From: a virus
Length of the DNA: 13,309 bases
Direction: 5' to 3' (one strand)
UHGV virus genome: UHGV-0148168
Shown here in pieces: positions 874 through 13,309 of this stretch (the stretch's first letter is position 1; each line of letters starts with the position of its first letter). The position numbers and the translations under genes are program-made. The notes below the pieces were generated by a model. That model did not search any database, was not told where the DNA came from, and saw nothing but the letters and a program-made list of their open reading frames with translations.

Positions 874-894
874 AACAATCTCCCCATTTAACCA

Positions 895-920
895 ACAAGA
901 CTACTATACCATAGTCTTGT
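895..920 (-). repeat. Perfect inverted repeat (9-bp arms ACAAGACTA / TAGTCTTGT, 8-nt loop) in the gene 41-dmd intergenic region; predicted mRNA stem-loop
   Basis: Read directly: plus 895..903 acaagacta and 912..920 tagtcttgt are reverse complements. Located between the gene 41 stop (932) and the dmd Shine-Dalgarno. No U-tract follows on the transcribed strand. Confidence 0.6.
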
Positions 921-931
921 CAGCTTGTAAA

Positions 932-2368: not shown

Positions 2369-2707
2369 TTAAAAGAATTTAAATTTTTTCTTTGACCTTT
2401 TATTAAATGCATCTTGCAGTTGCATTGTAATACATTTTTCTACATGAGGAGCTAACTCAGCTTTTCTTTCTTGGTCAAGAACAGCAAAGTCCATTACAAC
2501 CTTTCCATCAACCCAATCCAGTTTAGTTACATACACTATATGTGTAGAACCATCTTCTAGTTTAATGACAATCTCCTGGATAACATTTTCCATAGCGGAT
2601 TTAATTATCTTAAGAGACTCATTAAAAAGACGTTCTTTTCTTTCTTCTTCCCCCTCCGAAGAGGGGGATTCATCGATAATTTCTAAATCTAAATCATCTT
2701 TACTCAT
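2369..2707 (-). CDS. 40: Gene 40-like protein (T4 gp40, head vertex assembly chaperone); most likely ATG start at 2707 (112 aa), with the track's 118-aa version starting at a GTG at 2725
   Basis: Position between uvsX and gene 41 as in T4. The ATG at 2707..2705 overlaps the last uvsX codons; the track's first codon is GTG. The start choice is uncertain; identity rests on synteny only. Confidence 0.55.
   Translation of the reverse strand: MSKDDLDLEIIDESPSSEGEEERKERLFNESLKIIKSAMENVIQEIVIKLEDGSTHIVYVTKLDWVDGKVVMDFAVLDQERKAELAPHVEKCITMQLQDAFNKRSKKKFKFF
2650..2667 (-). other. GC-rich RNA hairpin CCCCCUC-UUCG-GAGGGGG (7-bp stem, UUCG tetraloop) inside the 5' coding region of gene 40, 32 nt downstream of the uvsX stop
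   Basis: Read directly: plus 2650..2656 ccccctc, 2657..2660 cgaa, 2661..2667 gaggggg. On the mRNA strand this is a perfect stem with a UUCG loop and encodes SPSSEGE in the gene 40 frame. Confidence 0.7.
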
Positions 2708-3958: not shown

Positions 3959-4801
3959 TTAATCAACTGCTATTGGATGAATAGCATTAAACTTATGAAA
4001 TGCTTCTGATTTTTCTTTACGCGAAACACACATGCGAAGAACCTTTAATGGTTCATCTTCTTCACCCAACGATTTTCGTTTTTCAATATTAGAAGTTTTC
4101 CAACGAGCTTGCTCTGGAAACTCTCTATTGATTTGCTCAAGCGCTCTATTATGTTTAGAATTACTACGAATTGAACTACATCCACCGGGAGCGTGTGATT
4201 TTCCAGATACAACTAGATATTTGAACAAGGCCAAATGCGGATAACCTTGATTAATTAAATTGAGAAATGCATACATATCTTCGCATAAATCAATTTTTCC
4301 ATACCCAATTTGTTCTGTCGTAAGTTTTCCGAGGTCATACCATGTATTCGTGAATCCATATGAGTTTTCACGATAATTACCCCAAGATGAAGTAATTTTA
4401 AAAATTGGTAGACGAGCATGACCGTGATAATACCCGCAATCCATGGCATCTTCAACATATTGAATCAATTCATAGAACTGTTCACGAGTTAATTGATTAA
4501 TTTTATCTACGCGCCGTTTATCGTCTCTCTTTCGTATTGAACTCATACGAATAGTAGTATCATCATCAATCATCCATATTCGTTGACCTGCATACATATC
4601 AGTAATTGCTTTACGAGTACCGGAAATTCCATTAACATCATCAGGAATAGTTACAATTTTAGCTCTAGACCCATAAGCATCATAATAAGCTTTTTCTTCG
4701 TGTTCACGCACTACAATATGGGGTTCATAATCAGTCGGAAACATATCAAGGGCAGAAACTGCCCCTACACGCTGATAACTTGGAATTACGAATTGAATCA
4801 T
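3959..4801 (-). CDS. Putative DNA-modifying glycosyltransferase of GT-A type, 280 aa, at the locus where T4 carries beta-glucosyltransferase
   Basis: N-terminal FVIPSYQR followed about 75 residues later by WMIDDD (DxD) is the GT-A fold signature. T4 beta-gt is 351 aa and GT-B, and does not resemble this. Placement between uvsX and gene 42 suggests a hydroxymethylcytosine glucosylation enzyme such as the T2/T6-type beta-glucosyl-HMC-alpha-glucosyltransferase (uncertain recall). Confidence 0.5.
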   Translation of the reverse strand: MIQFVIPSYQRVGAVSALDMFPTDYEPHIVVREHEEKAYYDAYGSRAKIVTIPDDVNGISGTRKAITDMYAGQRIWMIDDDTTIRMSSIRKRDDKRRVDKINQLTREQFYELIQYVEDAMDCGYYHGHARLPIFKITSSWGNYRENSYGFTNTWYDLGKLTTEQIGYGKIDLCEDMYAFLNLINQGYPHLALFKYLVVSGKSHAPGGCSSIRSNSKHNRALEQINREFPEQARWKTSNIEKRKSLGEEDEPLKVLRMCVSRKEKSEAFHKFNAIHPIAVD

Positions 4802-5439
4802 TTAAGTGCCTTACATTTGTCAAAATGGTATCTTGTCATATTTGGCCCACGTCCTTTTAGTCCGCAATGCGGACATATTTTTTCTATCAAATTATGAGGT
4901 TTTCCTTTACGATTTTTAGACATCGTTTCTTTAATTATTTTAGCTTTTTCTGCGCCAAAAATTTCTTCATAAGTTTTACCAGAATTTTCCTTTGCTCGAT
5001 TTATAATTCCATATGCCTGCTCATTTTTACCATACATTGGATTACCTTCGCCTTTCATTCTTTTAGAATGATCAGGACGCTTGATTCCACGAAAGGCATT
5101 TCCGCACTTATATCTTTCTTCTGGAGATAGTTTTTTACCGTACATTCCATTTAATTTGCCTGGAAAACTTCCTCCCCATGCTTCATTCTTTAAATTATAT
5201 GAATCCGGACAATTAGCAGCATCTAAACAAGTTAAAATAATTTCTTCAACCTGTCTAAACATTGGTCCTTCATATAATATTTCTTTATTAAAGGATTTTA
5301 TTCCATATTTCTTTTTAGCATGTTGCCAAACTACACCCGAACCATCATAATTTGGGTTGTGACCATCATGACTTCCTATATACCACTTTTTAGTTTTAGG
5401 ATGTTTATACTTATAAACATGTGGCACATTTACTTCCAT
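4798..5439 (-). CDS. GIY-YIG family homing endonuclease (Seg-like), 213 aa, with NUMOD-like repeats and a C-terminal CxxC zinc-finger-like motif
   Basis: N-terminal VYKYKHPKTKKWYIGS fits the GIY...YIG motif. Repeated G-x-YGK/basic modules (NGMYGKK, NPMYGKN) and C-terminal CPHCG...DKC. The start overlaps the gene 42 end by 10 nt and the stop overlaps the glycosyltransferase start (ATGA), with no own promoter; typical of free-standing phage homing-endonuclease genes. Confidence 0.7.
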   Translation of the reverse strand: MEVNVPHVYKYKHPKTKKWYIGSHDGHNPNYDGSGVVWQHAKKKYGIKSFNKEILYEGPMFRQVEEIILTCLDAANCPDSYNLKNEAWGGSFPGKLNGMYGKKLSPEERYKCGNAFRGIKRPDHSKRMKGEGNPMYGKNEQAYGIINRAKENSGKTYEEIFGAEKAKIIKETMSKNRKGKPHNLIEKICPHCGLKGRGPNMTRYHFDKCKALK

Positions 5440-7110: not shown

Positions 7111-7131
7111 AAAAAGGGACCCGGAGGTCCC
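7111..7131 (-). terminator. Rho-independent terminator after gene 43: GGGACC-UCCG-GGUCCC hairpin followed by UUUUU
   Basis: Plus 7116..7131 gggacccggaggtccc is a perfect 6-bp inverted repeat with a 4-nt loop. On the minus strand it is followed by TTTTT (7115..7111). Begins 13 nt after the gene 43 stop codon. Confidence 0.8.
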
Positions 7132-7144
7132 TAGATTTATTCTA

Positions 7145-9841
7145 TCAGCCAAACAGGAAGTCTAACGAAGCTTTTTCCTCATAATCCATACCAGCCGATT
7201 CACACATACCCGCAAGCGGTTTAACAAACGATTTTTGGAACAAAGTTGAGTAGTCAATCCAAGATAGTACATCAGAACGAATTTCTTTTGGAAGTTCTGT
7301 GCCCGACGGCCAAGCAATGCACTTGTCACCAAATGGATTTCCTTCACGCAATGGAAGAACCATTACCTTATTTCCATCCAAAATTGGAGCTACACCTAGA
7401 CCACTAACAGCTCGACGATAAGTTAGCACACCGCGAATATGGAACGGGCATTTAAATCCTGGCCAACCTTTATCATCATATTTCGCTATATCGTTCGCAG
7501 TTTTTACTTCAGCAATAACTTTATAGTCGAGTTGACGATATTCTTTCTCAAAGTTCTTGTAGTATTCTTGGACAGACTCTTCACCTTCCTGAAGAATACG
7601 ACGAATACTTTCTTCGAGAGCTTCTTGCACTGCTTTTGGTGTTGAACTCTGCTGAGTTTCCATGCCCATGATTTTTAGATGCGGTTCAGCAAATCGCTTA
7701 TCTTCCATATCATAAACGTTCAGAGCATAACGTTTTTTCGCTTTCCAAAATCCACCAACACCCTTTGAACCAAGCGGAGGGCAAGAAATAGCTTCACGGT
7801 CCATATGCATCAGATGCTCGCGATTATTCATATAATCACATAACTCACGATATGCAACATCAATCATAGGTTCCATCTTTTTCTTACCAAACTGATTCAT
7901 GAATTCAACTAAATCATTTTGTTCTTTAAAGCGGTCAAGACCTACTTTTTCAATTACTTTATCTACACAAACATATACCGAATCAGTATCACCTGCTGCA
8001 ATGAAATCTTCATCATTAGTTCCGCATACTTTATTCAGATATTCATTAATTTTACGAGCAATCCACTGAATACCGACTTGGCCAAAAATTGTGATAGCAG
8101 TAGCATTTCGCAAATCATAGTAACGGAAATGAATATTACCAAGAGCACCATAAAGACTGTTAATAAGAATTTTACGGTTTAGCTGATTTGTATTAGCAAG
8201 TGTAGCCGCTTTTTCACATTCTTCAATCAGACTATTGAGAACAGATTCAGTATAATTCGATAGTTCATTTAAGAAATCATCACTGAACTTAACATATCGT
8301 TCAACTTCTGGTTTAGTTGAACAAGACCCTGCGCCTTTCATAATAATCTTTTTAATAGCTTCGGCATTCATTTCTTCAGCGAACATTTTCTTTTTCCAAT
8401 CTTTACGCTGGAAAAATACTTTAGCGATTTCCTTTGGAATGATACCTTCTTGATGCTTATCATACATCCATCCATTCGGAGAACAAGAATATTCATCACT
8501 CGGTTTAGGAGCTGTTCCTGCGATATATTCATGAATTGGATGAACTTTAAACTGCCCACGAATAGTCTCAGGACTAATGTTAACCTGACGAATAATGCTC
8601 GGATACAGAGACGTCAAGTCAAAACTCATAATATATCGACGAGCAATTGGTTTAGGTTCAAACACAAATGCACCCGGAAAACTCTGTTTAACGTGCGAAC
8701 CTTGTTGAGGAATAACCTTATGTTCACCTTTCAATGAGTTAAAAATAATAGCATCCCAAGTTTTAATAGGACTCATTACACCGGAAAAAGGCATTTTAGC
8801 GTAATAAGACATACTTAAAACTAGATCGATAAACCCACGAATTTTATCAATTGCTTGAACTGATTCTACGTCAATGATGTTATAACTAATGTATCGTTGA
8901 TGATTAGTCTCACGAAGTTTATTAATAGGACCGTCGTATGGTAATTTACCTTTTTTGGTTTCATGCTGAGCAACTGATTCCAAAGAGAATGACGGCAAAT
9001 TAGTAAAAGCGAATTTCTTGTACAAATCTAAATAATCAAGAATAGATACGCCATCAATAGAATAAATTTCTTTGCTACCGTACATATTTTGAATTAGTTT
9101 AGATTTTACCCGACCGATTGGAGAGAAGCGTTTCATACTACGTTCGCCCAGAATCATTTTAACACGATTCATGATATACGGAACGTCAAACCCCTCAATA
9201 TTCCAACCGGTAAAAATAGCAGGTCGTTTCTGTTCCCAGAGATTGATATATTCCATGAGCATATCACGCTCATTATCGAATGGCATATAAATTACTCTGT
9301 CAAGAATTTCTTGAGGAACTTCATCACCACCTTCACAGTCAAGCTTAGCAGCTAACTTTGCATCCCATTTTGATACTGAACCGTACATTGAATTCAAAAG
9401 GTCGAAAACATAAAAACGATCGTCAATTGAATCATAATGAGTGATAGCATCAATTTCATATTCAGCTTTCATTGGGTCAGGAAATTTATCACCAGTAACC
9501 TCAATATCACAGTTAGCTACACGAACAAATTTTCGGTCATAAACAATTTCTGAACCATACGTATCACTGATATAAGCGAGTTTAAAATCGTTCATACCAA
9601 GAGCTTCGAGACCGATGTCTTCCATTCGCTTCATCCAATCTCGAGCATCTTTCATTGATTGAAATTTTTGAGGAGCGCAATTTTTACCATAAATGTCTTT
9701 GTACTTTGACTCTTCCTTACAATGCCTAAACATAGTCGGAAGATATTCTACTTCACGAGTACGTTCCTTTCCGTTTTCATCAATATAACGTTCAACAATG
9801 TTATTTCCGACTGTTTCGATAGAGATATAAAATTCTTTCAT
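7145..9841 (-). CDS. 43: Gene 43 DNA polymerase (family B, with 3'-5' exonuclease), 898 aa
   Basis: 898 aa equals T4 gp43. N-terminus MKEFYISIETVGNNIVERYIDENGKERTREVEY matches my recollection of T4 gp43. Exo I motif CDIEV, pol motif A DLTSLYPS, motif B KILINSLYGALG, motif C GDTDS. Confidence 0.96.
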   Translation of the reverse strand: MKEFYISIETVGNNIVERYIDENGKERTREVEYLPTMFRHCKEESKYKDIYGKNCAPQKFQSMKDARDWMKRMEDIGLEALGMNDFKLAYISDTYGSEIVYDRKFVRVANCDIEVTGDKFPDPMKAEYEIDAITHYDSIDDRFYVFDLLNSMYGSVSKWDAKLAAKLDCEGGDEVPQEILDRVIYMPFDNERDMLMEYINLWEQKRPAIFTGWNIEGFDVPYIMNRVKMILGERSMKRFSPIGRVKSKLIQNMYGSKEIYSIDGVSILDYLDLYKKFAFTNLPSFSLESVAQHETKKGKLPYDGPINKLRETNHQRYISYNIIDVESVQAIDKIRGFIDLVLSMSYYAKMPFSGVMSPIKTWDAIIFNSLKGEHKVIPQQGSHVKQSFPGAFVFEPKPIARRYIMSFDLTSLYPSIIRQVNISPETIRGQFKVHPIHEYIAGTAPKPSDEYSCSPNGWMYDKHQEGIIPKEIAKVFFQRKDWKKKMFAEEMNAEAIKKIIMKGAGSCSTKPEVERYVKFSDDFLNELSNYTESVLNSLIEECEKAATLANTNQLNRKILINSLYGALGNIHFRYYDLRNATAITIFGQVGIQWIARKINEYLNKVCGTNDEDFIAAGDTDSVYVCVDKVIEKVGLDRFKEQNDLVEFMNQFGKKKMEPMIDVAYRELCDYMNNREHLMHMDREAISCPPLGSKGVGGFWKAKKRYALNVYDMEDKRFAEPHLKIMGMETQQSSTPKAVQEALEESIRRILQEGEESVQEYYKNFEKEYRQLDYKVIAEVKTANDIAKYDDKGWPGFKCPFHIRGVLTYRRAVSGLGVAPILDGNKVMVLPLREGNPFGDKCIAWPSGTELPKEIRSDVLSWIDYSTLFQKSFVKPLAGMCESAGMDYEEKASLDFLFG

Positions 9842-9880
9842 AGATATTCCTTAGTTTATAGCCCGAGTTATTAGGCTCTT
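9842..9880 (-). promoter_or_regulatory. Gene 43 translational operator: mRNA hairpin (stem AGCCU/GGGCU, 8-nt loop AAUAACUC) plus Shine-Dalgarno AGGA, the site bound by gp43 for autogenous translational repression
   Basis: Minus strand reads GAGCCUAAUAACUCGGGCUAUAAACUAAGGAAUAUCUAUG. The loop AAUAACUC (plus 9865..9872) is the wild-type loop I recall from the T4 gene 43 operator used in the original SELEX experiment. Confidence 0.8.
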
Positions 9881-9899
9881 GATATATTATACTCCAAAT

Positions 9900-9917
9900 A
9901 AGGGGCCGAAGCCCCTT
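9900..9917 (-). other. GC-rich UUCG-tetraloop hairpin AAGGGGC-UUCG-GCCCCUU, starting 2 nt after the regA stop codon
   Basis: Plus 9900..9906 aaggggc, 9907..9910 cgaa, 9911..9917 gcccctt. Perfect 7-bp stem; the loop reads UUCG on the mRNA. Followed by UAUUUGGAG and a TATAAT at 9891..9886. Confidence 0.75.
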
Positions 9918-9919
9918 GC

Positions 9920-10288
9920 TTAATTACCAATCGTATATTTAGGAACGAGTTTCCATTCATGTTTTTGTTTAAAAGAAATAACTCGGAAGTTATTAGTTAA
10001 ATCTTTCATAAAAGTTCTTTGACCAGGAACGATTTCAATCAGTCCCCAATCTTCTAACAACCATGCTATTGAATCACGACGAACTTCATCTTCTTCTGTC
10101 ATTTCAACTTGGCGACCATCCATACGAAGCATTTCTTTAAAATGAACGATATAGTATAGTCCTTTTTTCTGAAGAATATGACAGGACTGATACAGAACTT
10201 TATCTTTATTATTAGCAATTCCCATACGAGTCAAAGTTTCTTTTACTTTCAGAAAATCTTCAGGTTTTTTAAGAGTAATTTCAATCAT
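9920..10288 (-). CDS. regA: RegA translational repressor of early genes, 122 aa
   Basis: 122 aa equals T4 RegA. Position between genes 62 and 43 as in T4. The ATG lies 1 nt after the gene 62 stop (TAA-A-ATG). Confidence 0.85.
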   Translation of the reverse strand: MIEITLKKPEDFLKVKETLTRMGIANNKDKVLYQSCHILQKKGLYYIVHFKEMLRMDGRQVEMTEEDEVRRDSIAWLLEDWGLIEIVPGQRTFMKDLTNNFRVISFKQKHEWKLVPKYTIGN

Positions 10289-10289
10289 T

Positions 10290-10853
10290 TTACCATTCCA
10301 ATGCTAGTTTTTTGAGTTGTTTCTGTTCTTTTACGTTCTTAGTCACTTCTTTCAAAAAATCATCCGTGACTAATCCTTTAAGTTCTTTTAATACTAAAGG
10401 AAGTTTTCCATTTTTAGTAAGAATTGATTTATAGTTAATTGCATCATTTGTATTAACTTGATACCGCTTAGCAAGTAACTTAATAATCAATACTTCGGTG
10501 GAATCTTCAACCAGTTTTGCCCATTTACCATATCTTTTACCACGAGGAACTGCAGCCATTAGATAATTAAAATGAGCTTCATCACTTAATCCAGAACCGA
10601 TTAAATTCATAGCATATACGGCTGGCATGCACTCTGGAAATTGTGATAATGCATTCTCAACCATGTATTTTGAATAATCTTTTTGAGCAATAGAGCATTT
10701 AGTTTTATTATTAATAGCTCCAATTATTTCAAAAAATTCATTTTCAGCTTTTTCCTTGAAAGAATCAGCAGCAGATTGGACAGCTGTCCAATCTTTTGAA
10801 TACCAAGCAACTTGATGCTTGTTTAATTGAATATCATCTTCAAATAAGCTCAT
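10290..10853 (-). CDS. 62: Gene 62 clamp-loader small subunit, 187 aa from the ATG at 10853 (the track's 194-aa version starts at a GTG at 10874)
   Basis: From the ATG the protein begins [22 protein letters not shown], consistent with T4 gp62 (187 aa as I recall). The ATG lies 1 nt after the gene 44 stop (TGA-T-ATG), indicating translational coupling. Confidence 0.85.
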
Positions 10854-10854
10854 A

Positions 10855-11814
10855 TCACTTCCACTGCATTTCACATGCCAATTGAATGAAAAGATATGCT
10901 AAATGTAATTCCGTATTAGCCGCAATTCCATGATACTGATTATTTTCACCAACAATTTCATACATACGAATAATACTTTGCGGAGTTACACGTGAATAGA
11001 TTTCTTCGGCAAGTTTACCCACGAACCACGAATAATCAGCTGCATATTTTGGTGCTAAAGCTCTGAGTTGTTTAACATCTTTATTTTTGAGAGACTCAAG
11101 AACATCATCAATAGCACCACGATCGTTAGTAACCAGTGATAAAATACCAGCATCCAAAACACCTTTAGATGAATAACTATCGAGCTCGCCAATAGTTTTA
11201 CGAAAATCAGGAAAATTCTTTTTAACCAAAGCTGCTACAACTTTCATATCAGCTATAGCAATTCCTTCATGCTTGCAGATTTCAGTCAATCGACGAATCA
11301 TCTGCTTCATCATTTCAATTTTATCTTCATCGGTCGGTTGACCGAATGTAATAACTCGGCAGCGTGACTGAAGTGGTTTAATAATACCATCAATATTGTT
11401 AGCAGTAATAATAATACTACAGTTTGAACTATAAGCTTCCATAAAGGAACGAAGATGTCGCTGAGACTCTGCTAACCCTGAGCGGTCAAATTCATCAATA
11501 ACGATTACTTTTTGACGACCATCAAATGAAGCTGCACTAGCAAAATTAGTCAAAGGACCACGAACGAAATCAATTTTACAGTCTGATCCATTCACAAACA
11601 TCATATCAGCATTTACATCATGACACAATGCTTTTGCTACAGTTGTTTTACCTGTTCCTGGAGAAGGAGAATGAAGAATAATATGTGGAATCTTACCTTT
11701 ACTTGTAATAGATTTAAAGGTTTCTTTATCAAAGGCGGGAAGAATACATTCATCGATAGTAGATGGACGATATTTCTGTTCAAGAATGTGTTCTTTTTCA
11801 TTTACGGTAATCAT
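10855..11814 (-). CDS. 44: Gene 44 clamp-loader ATPase (AAA+, RFC-like), 319 aa from the ATG at 11814 (the track's version starts at a TTG at 11829)
   Basis: Walker [11 protein letters not shown], Walker B VIDEFD, SRC motif LQSRCR. From the ATG the protein begins [17 protein letters not shown] and is 319 aa, as in T4 gp44. GAGGAAA Shine-Dalgarno before the ATG. Confidence 0.92.
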
Positions 11815-11848
11815 AATTTCCTCATTCAAGTTTTAGTGTAAATTATAA

Positions 11849-11862
11849 AGGGCCGAAGCCCT
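11849..11862 (-). other. UUCG-tetraloop hairpin AGGGC-UUCG-GCCCU (extendable to 7 bp with a G-U pair), 3 nt after the gene 45 stop codon
   Basis: Plus 11849..11853 agggc, 11854..11857 cgaa, 11858..11862 gccct. On the mRNA it reads AGAGGGCUUCGGCCCUUU and is followed directly by UAUAAU (11847..11842), then the gene 44 Shine-Dalgarno. Confidence 0.7.
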
Positions 11863-11865
11863 CTA

Positions 11866-12552
11866 TTAAAAATCATGGGTAGAATCAGCTTCAAGAGCTA
11901 CTACATAATTCGCATGTTCACCTTCAAATTTAGCAGCGCCTTGTTTACCTTTTGCCCAGAGCAGAAGTTTATAATTTCCTGGTTGCATTTTCATATTTGC
12001 CATATTGATAATGAAATTAAATGTATTTTCACCATCGTAATCACCAAGAGTCAAAGAATATTTAACACGTGTCAAAGCAGAATCTTCTACTTTATTAAAA
12101 CCGTTAATTACGATTTTACCTTCTTTTACCGTGATAGCAATTGTATCAATTTGCAGACCACGAGATACACGCAACAGCTGTTGAAGGTCTTCAGCTTTAA
12201 TTTCGGTAACAACAGATGCTACCGGGAATGGAATTGGTTTATTAGGAGCAACTACTGTACTCGGATCGGCTGCTGGCCAAAAAATTGTTGAGCGTGCATC
12301 AGCAATTTTAATATTTCCATCTTCTGACTGGGAAATTTCTGCATCATCATTAACTAGAGACAGAATACCGAGAAAACCGTTCAAATCGTAAATTGCTACA
12401 TCAAAATCAATAACGTCAGAAATATTTGCTTCCGCATAAGTTGTACCATTAACTGCGCGAGTCATAATAAATTGACCTGATTTAAGCATAATGCCAGAGT
12501 TAATAGTAGCGAAATTTTTCAAAATATTCAGTGTGTCTTTAGATAATTTCAT
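11866..12552 (-). CDS. 45: Gene 45 sliding clamp (PCNA-like processivity factor), 228 aa
   Basis: 228 aa equals T4 gp45 and the N-terminus MKLSKDTLNILKNFATINSG matches my recollection. Sits upstream of 44/62 as in T4. The ATG overlaps the stop of the upstream ORF (ATGA). Confidence 0.9.
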   Translation of the reverse strand: MKLSKDTLNILKNFATINSGIMLKSGQFIMTRAVNGTTYAEANISDVIDFDVAIYDLNGFLGILSLVNDDAEISQSEDGNIKIADARSTIFWPAADPSTVVAPNKPIPFPVASVVTEIKAEDLQQLLRVSRGLQIDTIAITVKEGKIVINGFNKVEDSALTRVKYSLTLGDYDGENTFNFIINMANMKMQPGNYKLLLWAKGKQGAAKFEGEHANYVVALEADSTHDF

Positions 12553-13260
12553 TTCAATTTCCTATTTACATAATAGTTAGACCAGGACCGTACAGCACCC
12601 TGATAAGATTCGTCGTTAAACCCATTAGCTACTGCAATTTTACGAAATTTATTATAACTCGGTTTTCCGTAAGCATGCCATAAAGATTTTAATTCATCTT
12701 CATGTTCAATCCAAGTTCCTCTAGCTTTAGATTTTCTAAATTTTGATTTGAATTCCGGTAAATTATTTCTAACAGTTGCTTGAATTGAAGCTCTCTGTCT
12801 TCTTTCAGCATTATTCCATAACTCTTTTTGAGATTTAGAAATTTTTGATCTTACACTTTCTGAATTCATTATATCACTAAACTTTTTAGCATAACTACAA
12901 TCAAGATATTTCAATTTCATCTTATTTGAAAGTTTAAGCTTTTTCTCATCGGTCCAGTGATTCTTCATTGAATTAGATATTTTGTATTTTACGTCAGAAC
13001 TATGTTTGTAACCTTTACGAATACCAACATAATCGGGCGTGATTTCAGATTGCGAAAGCTTTACAATTTTTCCAGTTAAAACATTTTTATATGTTCCATA
13101 TCCTTTAGCGCCAATTAAAGTATTTTCATCTGCGTATGCTTTATTAAAATATTTTATATTACTTTTTGCTTTAACTTTTAATTGAAAAAATCTTTCCAAT
13201 TTTCTTGGATCTAATATAGTTTCAGCTAAAATTTTGACGGTATATTTAGTGGTTTTAATA
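12549..13260 (-). CDS. 5'-truncated ORF (at least 236 aa in the window) encoding a lysine-rich protein with NUMOD3-like repeats; probable homing-endonuclease DNA-binding region. The N-terminus lies beyond the window.
   Basis: Motifs YKHSSDVKYKISNSMKNHW and SESVRSKISKSQKELW resemble the NUMOD3 module of I-TevI (HKHSDITKSKISEKMKGKK, as I recall it). The ORF runs open into the adapter; the track's first six residues MCIRDS are translated from adapter sequence. The stop overlaps the gene 45 ATG. Confidence 0.5.
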
Positions 13261-13309
13261 CTGTCTCTTATACACATCTGACGCTGCCGACGACTCCTTA
13301 CGTGTAGAT
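13261..13309. other. Synthetic Illumina Nextera adapter (reverse complement of read-1 transposase adapter CTGTCTCTTATACACATCTGACGCTGCCGACGA, 8-nt index CTCCTTAC, start of P5 GTGTAGAT). Not phage sequence.
   Basis: 13261..13293 is an exact match, by eye, to the reverse complement of TCGTCGGCAGCGTCAGATGTGTATAAGAGACAG. The following 8 nt and GTGTAGAT fit the i5 index and P5 tail. Confidence 0.95.

Follow-up and report, generated by a model that had tools for sequence, protein, structure and literature searches.

Between gene 45 (sliding clamp) and gene 44 (clamp-loader subunit) of a T4-like phage, the minus strand of the 13,309-nucleotide stretch of DNA analyzed here (the window) encodes a hairpin with a C(UUCG)G tetraloop. 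This hairpin is sense-strand-specific and well beyond what chance would give, and the evidence supports a real, selected RNA element that belongs to the already known class of intercistronic C(UUCG)G hairpins of T4. With moderate confidence, we read it as an element acting at the RNA level, mostly read through by RNA polymerase and serving as a leaky attenuator and/or a barrier to 3′ decay, and we read the adjoining TATAAT as non-functional, that is, as a Tequatrovirus-specific A+T-rich stretch whose first bases also form the 3′ arm of the extended stem.

The hairpin at the gene 45-44 junction

Judged from its sequence, the window comes from a T4-like phage of the genus Tequatrovirus: an 801-base segment around the junction shows 97-99% identity with more than 500 Tequatrovirus genomes, including T4, T2, T6, RB phages, and Shigella and Yersinia isolates, and the long ORFs on the minus strand follow the order of the T4 replication cluster (45, 44, 62, regA, 43). 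In the ORF list, gene 45 (228 aa; 97-99% identity to Tequatrovirus gene 45) occupies 11866..12552 with its stop included, gene 44 (319 aa) occupies 10855..11814 with its ATG at 11814..11812, regA lies at 10288..9920, and gene 43 lies at 9841..7145, all on the minus strand, where gene 62 is found between gene 44 and regA. Directly upstream of gene 45, at 12549..13260 on the minus strand, is a homing-endonuclease homolog (phrog_655, E = 5e-29; without a Pfam match), and its stop overlaps the gene 45 ATG (ATGA). This ORF sits where T4 has the rpbA-45 spacer with the middle promoter P45 (MotA box TTGCTTTA), and because the P45-bearing spacer is replaced, the transcription of gene 45 may differ from that in T4. 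The end of the window (13261..13309) we take to be an Illumina library adapter rather than phage DNA; it reads on the minus strand ATCTACAC (P5 tail), then GTAAGGAG (i5 index), and then TCGTCGGCAGCGTCAGATGTGTATAAGAGACAG (Nextera read-1 adapter). Because the ATG "start" (13277) of the 242-aa ORF falls within this adapter, the ORF is 5′-truncated.

On the minus strand, the junction reads ...CAT GAT TTT TAA TAG A GGGC TTCG GCCC T TTATAAT TTACACTAAAACTTGAATGAGGAAATT ATG, and the spacer between the two genes is 51 nt long. Gene 45 ends with tandem in-frame stops, TAA (11868..11866) and TAG (11865..11863), which are evident both in the sequence and in the alignment of relatives (11863..11868, minus strand). 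The core hairpin, AGGGC-UUCG-GCCCU (11849..11862, minus strand), identified by sequence and folding, has a 5-bp stem capped by the C(UUCG)G tetraloop, and its closing pair has a predicted probability of 0.998 in context. It begins 3 nt past the TAA, and those 3 nt are the second in-frame stop. A preliminary description of the window had placed a hairpin at 11849-11862, 3 nt after the gene 45 stop, with a TATAAT adjoining it before gene 44; the hairpin coordinates were reproduced exactly, and the hexamer was found at 11847..11842, followed by the Shine-Dalgarno sequence and the AUG. Folding predicts an extended 9-bp hairpin (AUAGAGGGC/GCCCUUUAU; 11845..11866, minus strand) with one G-U pair and a free energy of -12.2 kcal/mol, whose stem incorporates the final A of the TAA as well as the initial three bases of the TATAAT. 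Position 11863 is the sole variable stem position within the Tequatrovirus alignment, being G or A among the relatives (TAG or TAA), and either base pairs with U11848. Further downstream on the minus strand, the gene 44 Shine-Dalgarno sequence GAGG (11820..11823) is invariant in Tequatrovirus, with its AUGAGGAAA context kept across genera, and AAAUUAUGAUU (11809..11819), overlapping the AUG, matches the published RegA operator of T4 gene 44 as quoted in PMC3014915.

RNAfold also proposed an A/U-rich long-range helix of 9 bp between 11877..11869 and 11821..11812, in which the last gene 45 codons (CAUGAUUUU) pair with the Shine-Dalgarno-AUG region of gene 44 (GAAAUUAUG) and enclose the hairpin. 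Such a helix would couple the translation of genes 45 and 44, but it was rejected as fortuitous because it depends on the CAU codon of the window, and relatives with CAC or GAC lose the pairing without compensation. The folds flanking the hairpin differ between near-identical genomes.

The 22-mer folds to -12.2 kcal/mol, compared with -3.8 ± 2.2 kcal/mol for its shuffles (z = -3.9; 0 of 200 shuffles as good). The hexamer CTTCGG occurs at three sites on the sense strand of the window (after gene 45, after regA, and inside gene 40), all three with stems of 7-9 bp, and at four sites on the antisense strand with stems of just 1-3 bp. By chance, 0.034 CTTCGG sites per strand would carry a stem of 5 bp or more, and none of 500 dinucleotide shuffles reached three. 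The antisense strand of the extended hairpin folds to only -7.7 kcal/mol, versus -12.2 kcal/mol for the sense strand, and the G-U pair of the sense strand is a C-A mismatch on the opposite strand. The same sense/antisense asymmetry was reported by the Gold laboratory for the entire T4 genome (PMC7165471). Of about 16 gene junctions in the window, only 4 carry a stable sense hairpin of this kind, and three of those four have UNCG loops. Rfam covariance models gave no match with E up to 1 in 9700..12100.

A class of T4 intercistronic C(UUCG)G hairpins was reportedly described by Tuerk et al. in 1988 (PNAS 85:1364). CUUCGG hairpins are abundant in T4, are mainly intergenic, and stop reverse transcriptase (PMC4371310, PMC8948821, PMC7165471), and the class is the source of the first characterization of the UUCG tetraloop (PMC4371310, PMC8948821). 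The gene 45-44 hairpin has the same CUUCGG hexamer (11858..11853, minus strand) at an intercistronic position on the sense strand, and its complementary flanks form 5 Watson-Crick pairs, extendable to 9, where the class has 2-8 bp of flanking complementarity with G-U allowed. We see no substantive difference between the two. The presence of the hairpin only confirms an ordinary T4-type replication-gene cluster.

Conservation of the hairpin among T4-type phages

To place the hairpin among its relatives, junctions were retrieved for twelve cultured phages of eleven other genera and for 80 environmental gp45 loci. Among the cultured lineages and two IMG/VR genomes, 12 of 14 lineages besides the window keep a stable hairpin between genes 45 and 44; the hairpin is found in Tequatro-, Jiaoda-, Mosig-, Gelderland-, Karam-, Gapriver-, Kanagawa-, Marfa-, Krisch-, Lazarus- and Muldoonvirus, and in the IMG/VR contig L020. 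The loops across lineages are UUCG, UACG, CACG, GAAA, and UAAA, the last closed by G·A or A·A in two RB49-type lineages, together with a 6-nt GUAAAA in L020. The stem sequences vary between lineages, and 8 of 8 stem positions are changed on both sides in a compensatory manner, a count that is biased toward structure by an alignment anchored on the hairpins themselves. Two controls are independent of covariation, namely spacer shuffles and neighboring spacers: all 13 of the 13 gene 45-44 spacers fold better than their own shuffles (z = -1.2 to -3.1), and the neighboring rpbA-45 spacers are unstructured (0 to -3 kcal/mol). On the evidence of these alignments and folds, the hairpin is conserved by structure, not by sequence, in at least eleven genera, which argues for a real RNA-level role, still imprecisely defined. 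The preliminary description had proposed a comparison across T-even genomes as a check, and this comparison bears out the hairpin, which is kept in 12 of 14 lineages, with the TATAAT confined to Tequatrovirus.

Two lineages, Bragavirus and L019, are without a hairpin and have spacers of 14 and 9 nt, respectively. Most of the distant environmental T4-like genomes are also without this gene 45-44 arrangement. Among the 80 IMG/VR gp45 loci (30-40% identity), gene 45 often precedes other ORFs or overlaps gene 44, and these loci are uninformative on the junction. Synteny is preserved at the junction in the cultured lineages, and no rearrangement is seen.

Of the 14 Tequatrovirus sequences aligned, 12 have an identical core, GGGCTTCGGCCC, and the remaining two are legacy T4 records that are one C short. 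The T4 records NC_000866 (at ~31,895) and AF158101 and the 1984 record X00769.1 read GGGCTTCGG-CC, lacking one C in the 3′ arm, and the full GGGCTTCGGCCC is read in the window, in 11 other Tequatrovirus sequences, and in resequenced T4 (MZ375356). When this C is missing, the predicted probability of the hairpin falls from 0.998 to 0.24. A deficit of one C in the 1984 record and in the T4 reference is as expected from gel compression by a stable hairpin, and the missing C is probably a legacy compression error still present in the T4 reference.

The placement of the hairpin within the spacer bears on which gene it serves. The distance from the hairpin end to the gene 44 AUG is steady at 20-35 nt in 13 of 13 lineages (mean about 29 nt), whereas the gap between the gene 45 stop and the hairpin drifts from 1 to 32 nt, with the added spacer sequence always upstream of the hairpin. 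This pattern would suit a hairpin that functionally belongs to gene 44, either as a 5′ boundary or insulator that shields the A/U-rich ribosome/RegA site from pairing with upstream sequence, or as the 5′ hairpin of a cleaved 44-62-regA mRNA produced by an endonucleolytic cut in the AU-rich stop-codon region. The title of a paper by Hsu and Karam from 1990 reportedly mentions mRNA processing sites in this gene cluster, which we count in favor of such a role. Moreover, a 5′ CUUCGG hairpin has been reported to stabilize the T4 gene 32 mRNA (PMC8948821). However, the lineages are few and related, the constant distance may be trivial given that a ribosome site needs a minimum clearance anyway, and the read density of gene 44 in T4 is below that of gene 45, not above it. 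A function of the hairpin on behalf of gene 44 is thus possible but rather unlikely.

The TATAAT hexamer and transcription across the junction

In the 1984 T4 record X00769.1, the TATAAT (11842..11847, minus strand) bears the label "-10 region (g44)", and a consensus scan pairs it with a -35-like hexamer, TTAATA (11864..11869, minus strand), across a 16-nt spacer that is the hairpin itself. The pair matches the sigma-70 consensus at 10 of 12 positions and has the spacing of a sigma-70 promoter, but such matches are no commoner than in shuffles: the window holds 54 sigma-70-like sites versus 53 expected from shuffles, and 20 copies of TATAAT versus 21.5 expected. No TATAAT follows the hairpin in any of the 11 other genera examined, and in RB49 the order is reversed, with the TATAAT before the hairpin. 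Even within Tequatrovirus, a 2-nt deletion in Ec_YwIITB1 and PinkRuby (GCCCTT--AAATTT) changes TTTATAAT to TTAAAT and leaves the hairpin core intact. Over an 86-nt stretch, 90-95% identity is seen for 31 of 503 records, which may share this 2-nt deletion.

The mapped T4 middle promoters in the region are P43, P45, P45.2, P46, and P47, with none before gene 44 (PMC2988021 Table 1). Similarly, no early promoter has been placed between 35.66 and 27.2 kb of T4, and Patterson-West et al. handled 35,662-27,197 as a single stretch downstream of the early promoter Pe35.3. A middle (MotA-dependent) promoter has been annotated at this site in phage fPS-90. We rejected this candidate, since just 12 nt separate the loop's GCTT from the TATAAT (from the G to the first T), versus 16-21 nt at P45 and P43, which is too short for the GCTT core of a MotA box near -30 and about 12 bp upstream of the -10, and since the read density drops across the site. 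A T4 late promoter was also rejected, because the late motif TATAAATA is absent from the entire window.

Published RNA-seq data of T4 allow a check on initiation between the two genes. Raw T4 read counts for 5 min post-infection are listed in Table S1 of PMC6024815 for three hosts, each with wild-type T4 and a motA amber mutant; these are gene-level counts that cannot show 3′ ends, they concern T4 rather than the phage of the window, and they cover 5 min only. In the wild-type host infected with wild-type T4, the reads per nucleotide are 65 for rpbA, 92 for gene 45, 56 for gene 44, 36 for gene 62, 32 for regA, and 45 for gene 43, so that the density of gene 45 is about 1.6 times that of gene 44. 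The 44/45 density ratios in the six conditions are 0.61, 0.63, 0.64, 0.65, 0.66, and 0.64. In particular, the ratio is 0.61 in wild type and 0.63 in the motA mutant, despite about 15-fold lower upstream transcription in the mutant, and the MotA dependence of the two genes is alike (fold change of 0.063 for gene 44 and 0.060 for gene 45). The ratios across the two mapped promoters do shift in the wild-type host without MotA, from 1.42 to 0.97 for 45/rpbA across P45 and from 1.39 to 1.16 for 43/regA across P43. Because the 44/45 ratio stays constant with or without MotA, there is no detectable initiation between genes 45 and 44, MotA-dependent or not. The preliminary description had expected promoter activity from the TATAAT, and in this gene-level check of a coverage step, with ratios of 0.61-0.66 with and without MotA, no promoter signature is seen.

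The TATAAT at the junction is a chance-level motif and probably no functional -10. More generally, a TATAAT adjoining a hairpin in A+T-rich phage DNA is no evidence of a promoter, and RNA-seq with and without MotA can serve as a test.

The regA-43 junction, which the preliminary description had regarded as having the same architecture, is instructive in this respect. Its sister hairpin, AAGGGGC-UUCG-GCCCCUU (9900..9917, minus strand), identified by sequence and folding after regA, is followed by UUAUUU, then by GGAGTATAAT with a TATAAT at 9891..9886, and then by the gp43 operator hairpin. The order of stop codon, C(UUCG)G hairpin, TATAAT, Shine-Dalgarno sequence, and ATG is indeed shared by the two junctions. 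At regA-43, however, the TATAAT is the -10 of the mapped middle promoter P43, which starts at T4 29933, 5 nt downstream of the hexamer (PMC2988021 Table 1), and the GGAGTATAAT there is conserved in most genera. The U-run after the hairpin, the conserved GGAGTATAAT, the mapped promoter, and the MotA-dependent rise in density are features of regA-43 and not of 45-44, so the likeness holds for the sequence order but does not extend to the promoter. Over 9917..9886 (T4 29,967..29,933), the UUCG loop has its GCTT near position -30 relative to the P43 start, so that the hairpin DNA at regA-43 may also serve as a (deviant) MotA box for P43. Right before the TATAAT at regA-43 there is also a RegB cleavage motif, GGAG.

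A more elaborate proposal is a cassette of the PeSL type, in which the stop, the stem-loop, a sigma-70 promoter (TTAATA-16-TATAAT), the Shine-Dalgarno sequence, and the ATG together would end the gene 45 RNA and restart transcription for gene 44. PeSLs (promoter-early stem-loops; Arbiol et al. 2010; Comeau et al. 2014) are repeated, sequence-conserved cassettes with demonstrated promoter activity, and they likewise combine a stop, a stem-loop, -35/-10 boxes, a Shine-Dalgarno sequence, and a start codon in one short spacer. The 10 of 12 consensus match, the label in the 1984 record, and the order shared with regA-43, where the promoter is real, all speak for such a cassette. However, PeSLs are concentrated in hyperplastic regions beside variable ORFs, whereas the 45-44 site is in the conserved replication core. 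Moreover, the PeSL promoter is active, whereas the boxes at 45-44 are unconserved and initiation independent of upstream transcription leaves no signature in the T4 RNA-seq data. With the hexamer at chance frequency, absent from the other genera, deleted in two isolates, and matched by no mapped T4 promoter, a PeSL-type cassette at this junction is very unlikely, and the module with re-initiation from the TATAAT suggested by the preliminary description is not supported.

Read-through of the hairpin and its possible roles

In the reading that we favor, a leaky and mostly read-through RNA hairpin, the element would fold in the polycistronic 45-44-62-regA transcript just past the tandem gene 45 stops, and most RNA polymerases would read through it. 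It would be at most a leaky attenuator and/or a barrier to 3′-to-5′ exonucleases for transcripts ended or cut downstream, and as an outcome gene 45 mRNA would be modestly more abundant than gene 44/62 mRNA. Ribosomes would then start independently on gene 44 in the read-through mRNA, at the gene's own unstructured Shine-Dalgarno/RegA-operator region some 30 nt further on.

The read-through of the hairpin in the T4 data accounts for at least ~60% of the signal. Leaky termination could account for the remaining drop of about 38% between genes 45 and 44, as could better survival of the RNA on the 5′ side of the hairpin. At the 44-62 junction, which has neither spacer nor hairpin, the 62/44 ratio is 0.53-0.64. 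Because this hairpin-free drop from gene 44 to gene 62 is equally large, the hairpin cannot be credited with the 45-to-44 drop, which may reflect a general 5′-to-3′ gradient rather than a hairpin effect. The idea in the preliminary description that the hairpin sets the expression ratio of clamp to clamp-loader is accordingly compatible with gene 45 mRNA at about 1.6 times gene 44 mRNA, but it is weakened by the same drop at the 44-62 junction. Any choice between partial termination and decay protection is one that we infer, and a role of the hairpin in setting the protein ratio would likewise be putative. In time-resolved T4 omics data, genes 45, 44, 62, and 43 are in one expression class and regA is expressed later (PMC9697503, whose supplements give classes only). 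Furthermore, the hairpin is so near the stop codon that a terminating ribosome must melt the stem, and termination and protection would therefore be limited on translated mRNA.

Several GenBank annotations call the 45-44 hairpin a putative terminator, and annotators predicted one in G4507, DalCa, and G4500. An efficient Rho-independent terminator would make gene 45 the last gene of its transcription unit, and the hairpin resembles one to some extent in its G+C-rich stem, its very stable loop, and the UUUAUAAUUU that follows. However, UUUAUAAUUU is interrupted (6 U in 10) and lies partly inside the extended stem, so that a consensus terminator scan omits the site, and most other genera have no U-run. 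Because its 3′ flank is of only moderate U content in this phage, and in most genera is not U-rich, the hairpin is unlikely to be a strong intrinsic terminator. Moreover, gene 44 retains 61-66% of the gene 45 density without a promoter between them. The apparent intrinsic terminator after gene 43 (7132..7115, minus strand) is also a G+C-rich hairpin with a stable UNCG loop directly past a stop codon, but its tail UUUUUCAU is an uninterrupted U-run, whereas at 45-44 at least ~60% of the signal continues past the tail. That hairpin, AGGGACC-UCCG-GGUCCCU followed by UUUUUCAU, looks like a canonical terminator. Efficient termination after gene 45 is thus highly improbable.

The least probable reading, which we consider scarcely tenable, is an element acting at the DNA level, either a cruciform or, as has been envisaged for PeSLs, a hotspot of recombination that shuffles modules: PeSL stem-loops have been suggested as recombination sites and a homing-endonuclease gene lies just upstream of gene 45 in the phage of the window, but the loops are of RNA-stable types (the UNCG-type UUCG and UACG, the UNCG-like CACG, and the GNRA-type GAAA), the stem-forming CTTCGG hairpins are confined to the sense strand, and the 45-44 junction is unrearranged in the cultured lineages. 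It is because of these loop types, the G-U pair of the sense strand, and the weaker antisense fold that the hairpin is considered to act as RNA.

Other elements were noted elsewhere on the minus strand of the window. In the gene 42-uvsX interval (3959..5439) there are a 213-aa ORF without a Pfam match and a 280-aa TET-associated glycosyltransferase (PF20691), at a position where T4 has its beta-glucosyltransferase. After gene 41, a 15-bp hairpin (-17.9 kcal/mol) is found at 925..890. A third and stronger sense C(UUCG)G hairpin (UCCCCCUC-UUCG-GAGGGGGA, -15.9 kcal/mol) is located at 2668..2649, within the 5′ coding part of gene 40, about 40 nt past its start and just downstream of the uvsX stop.
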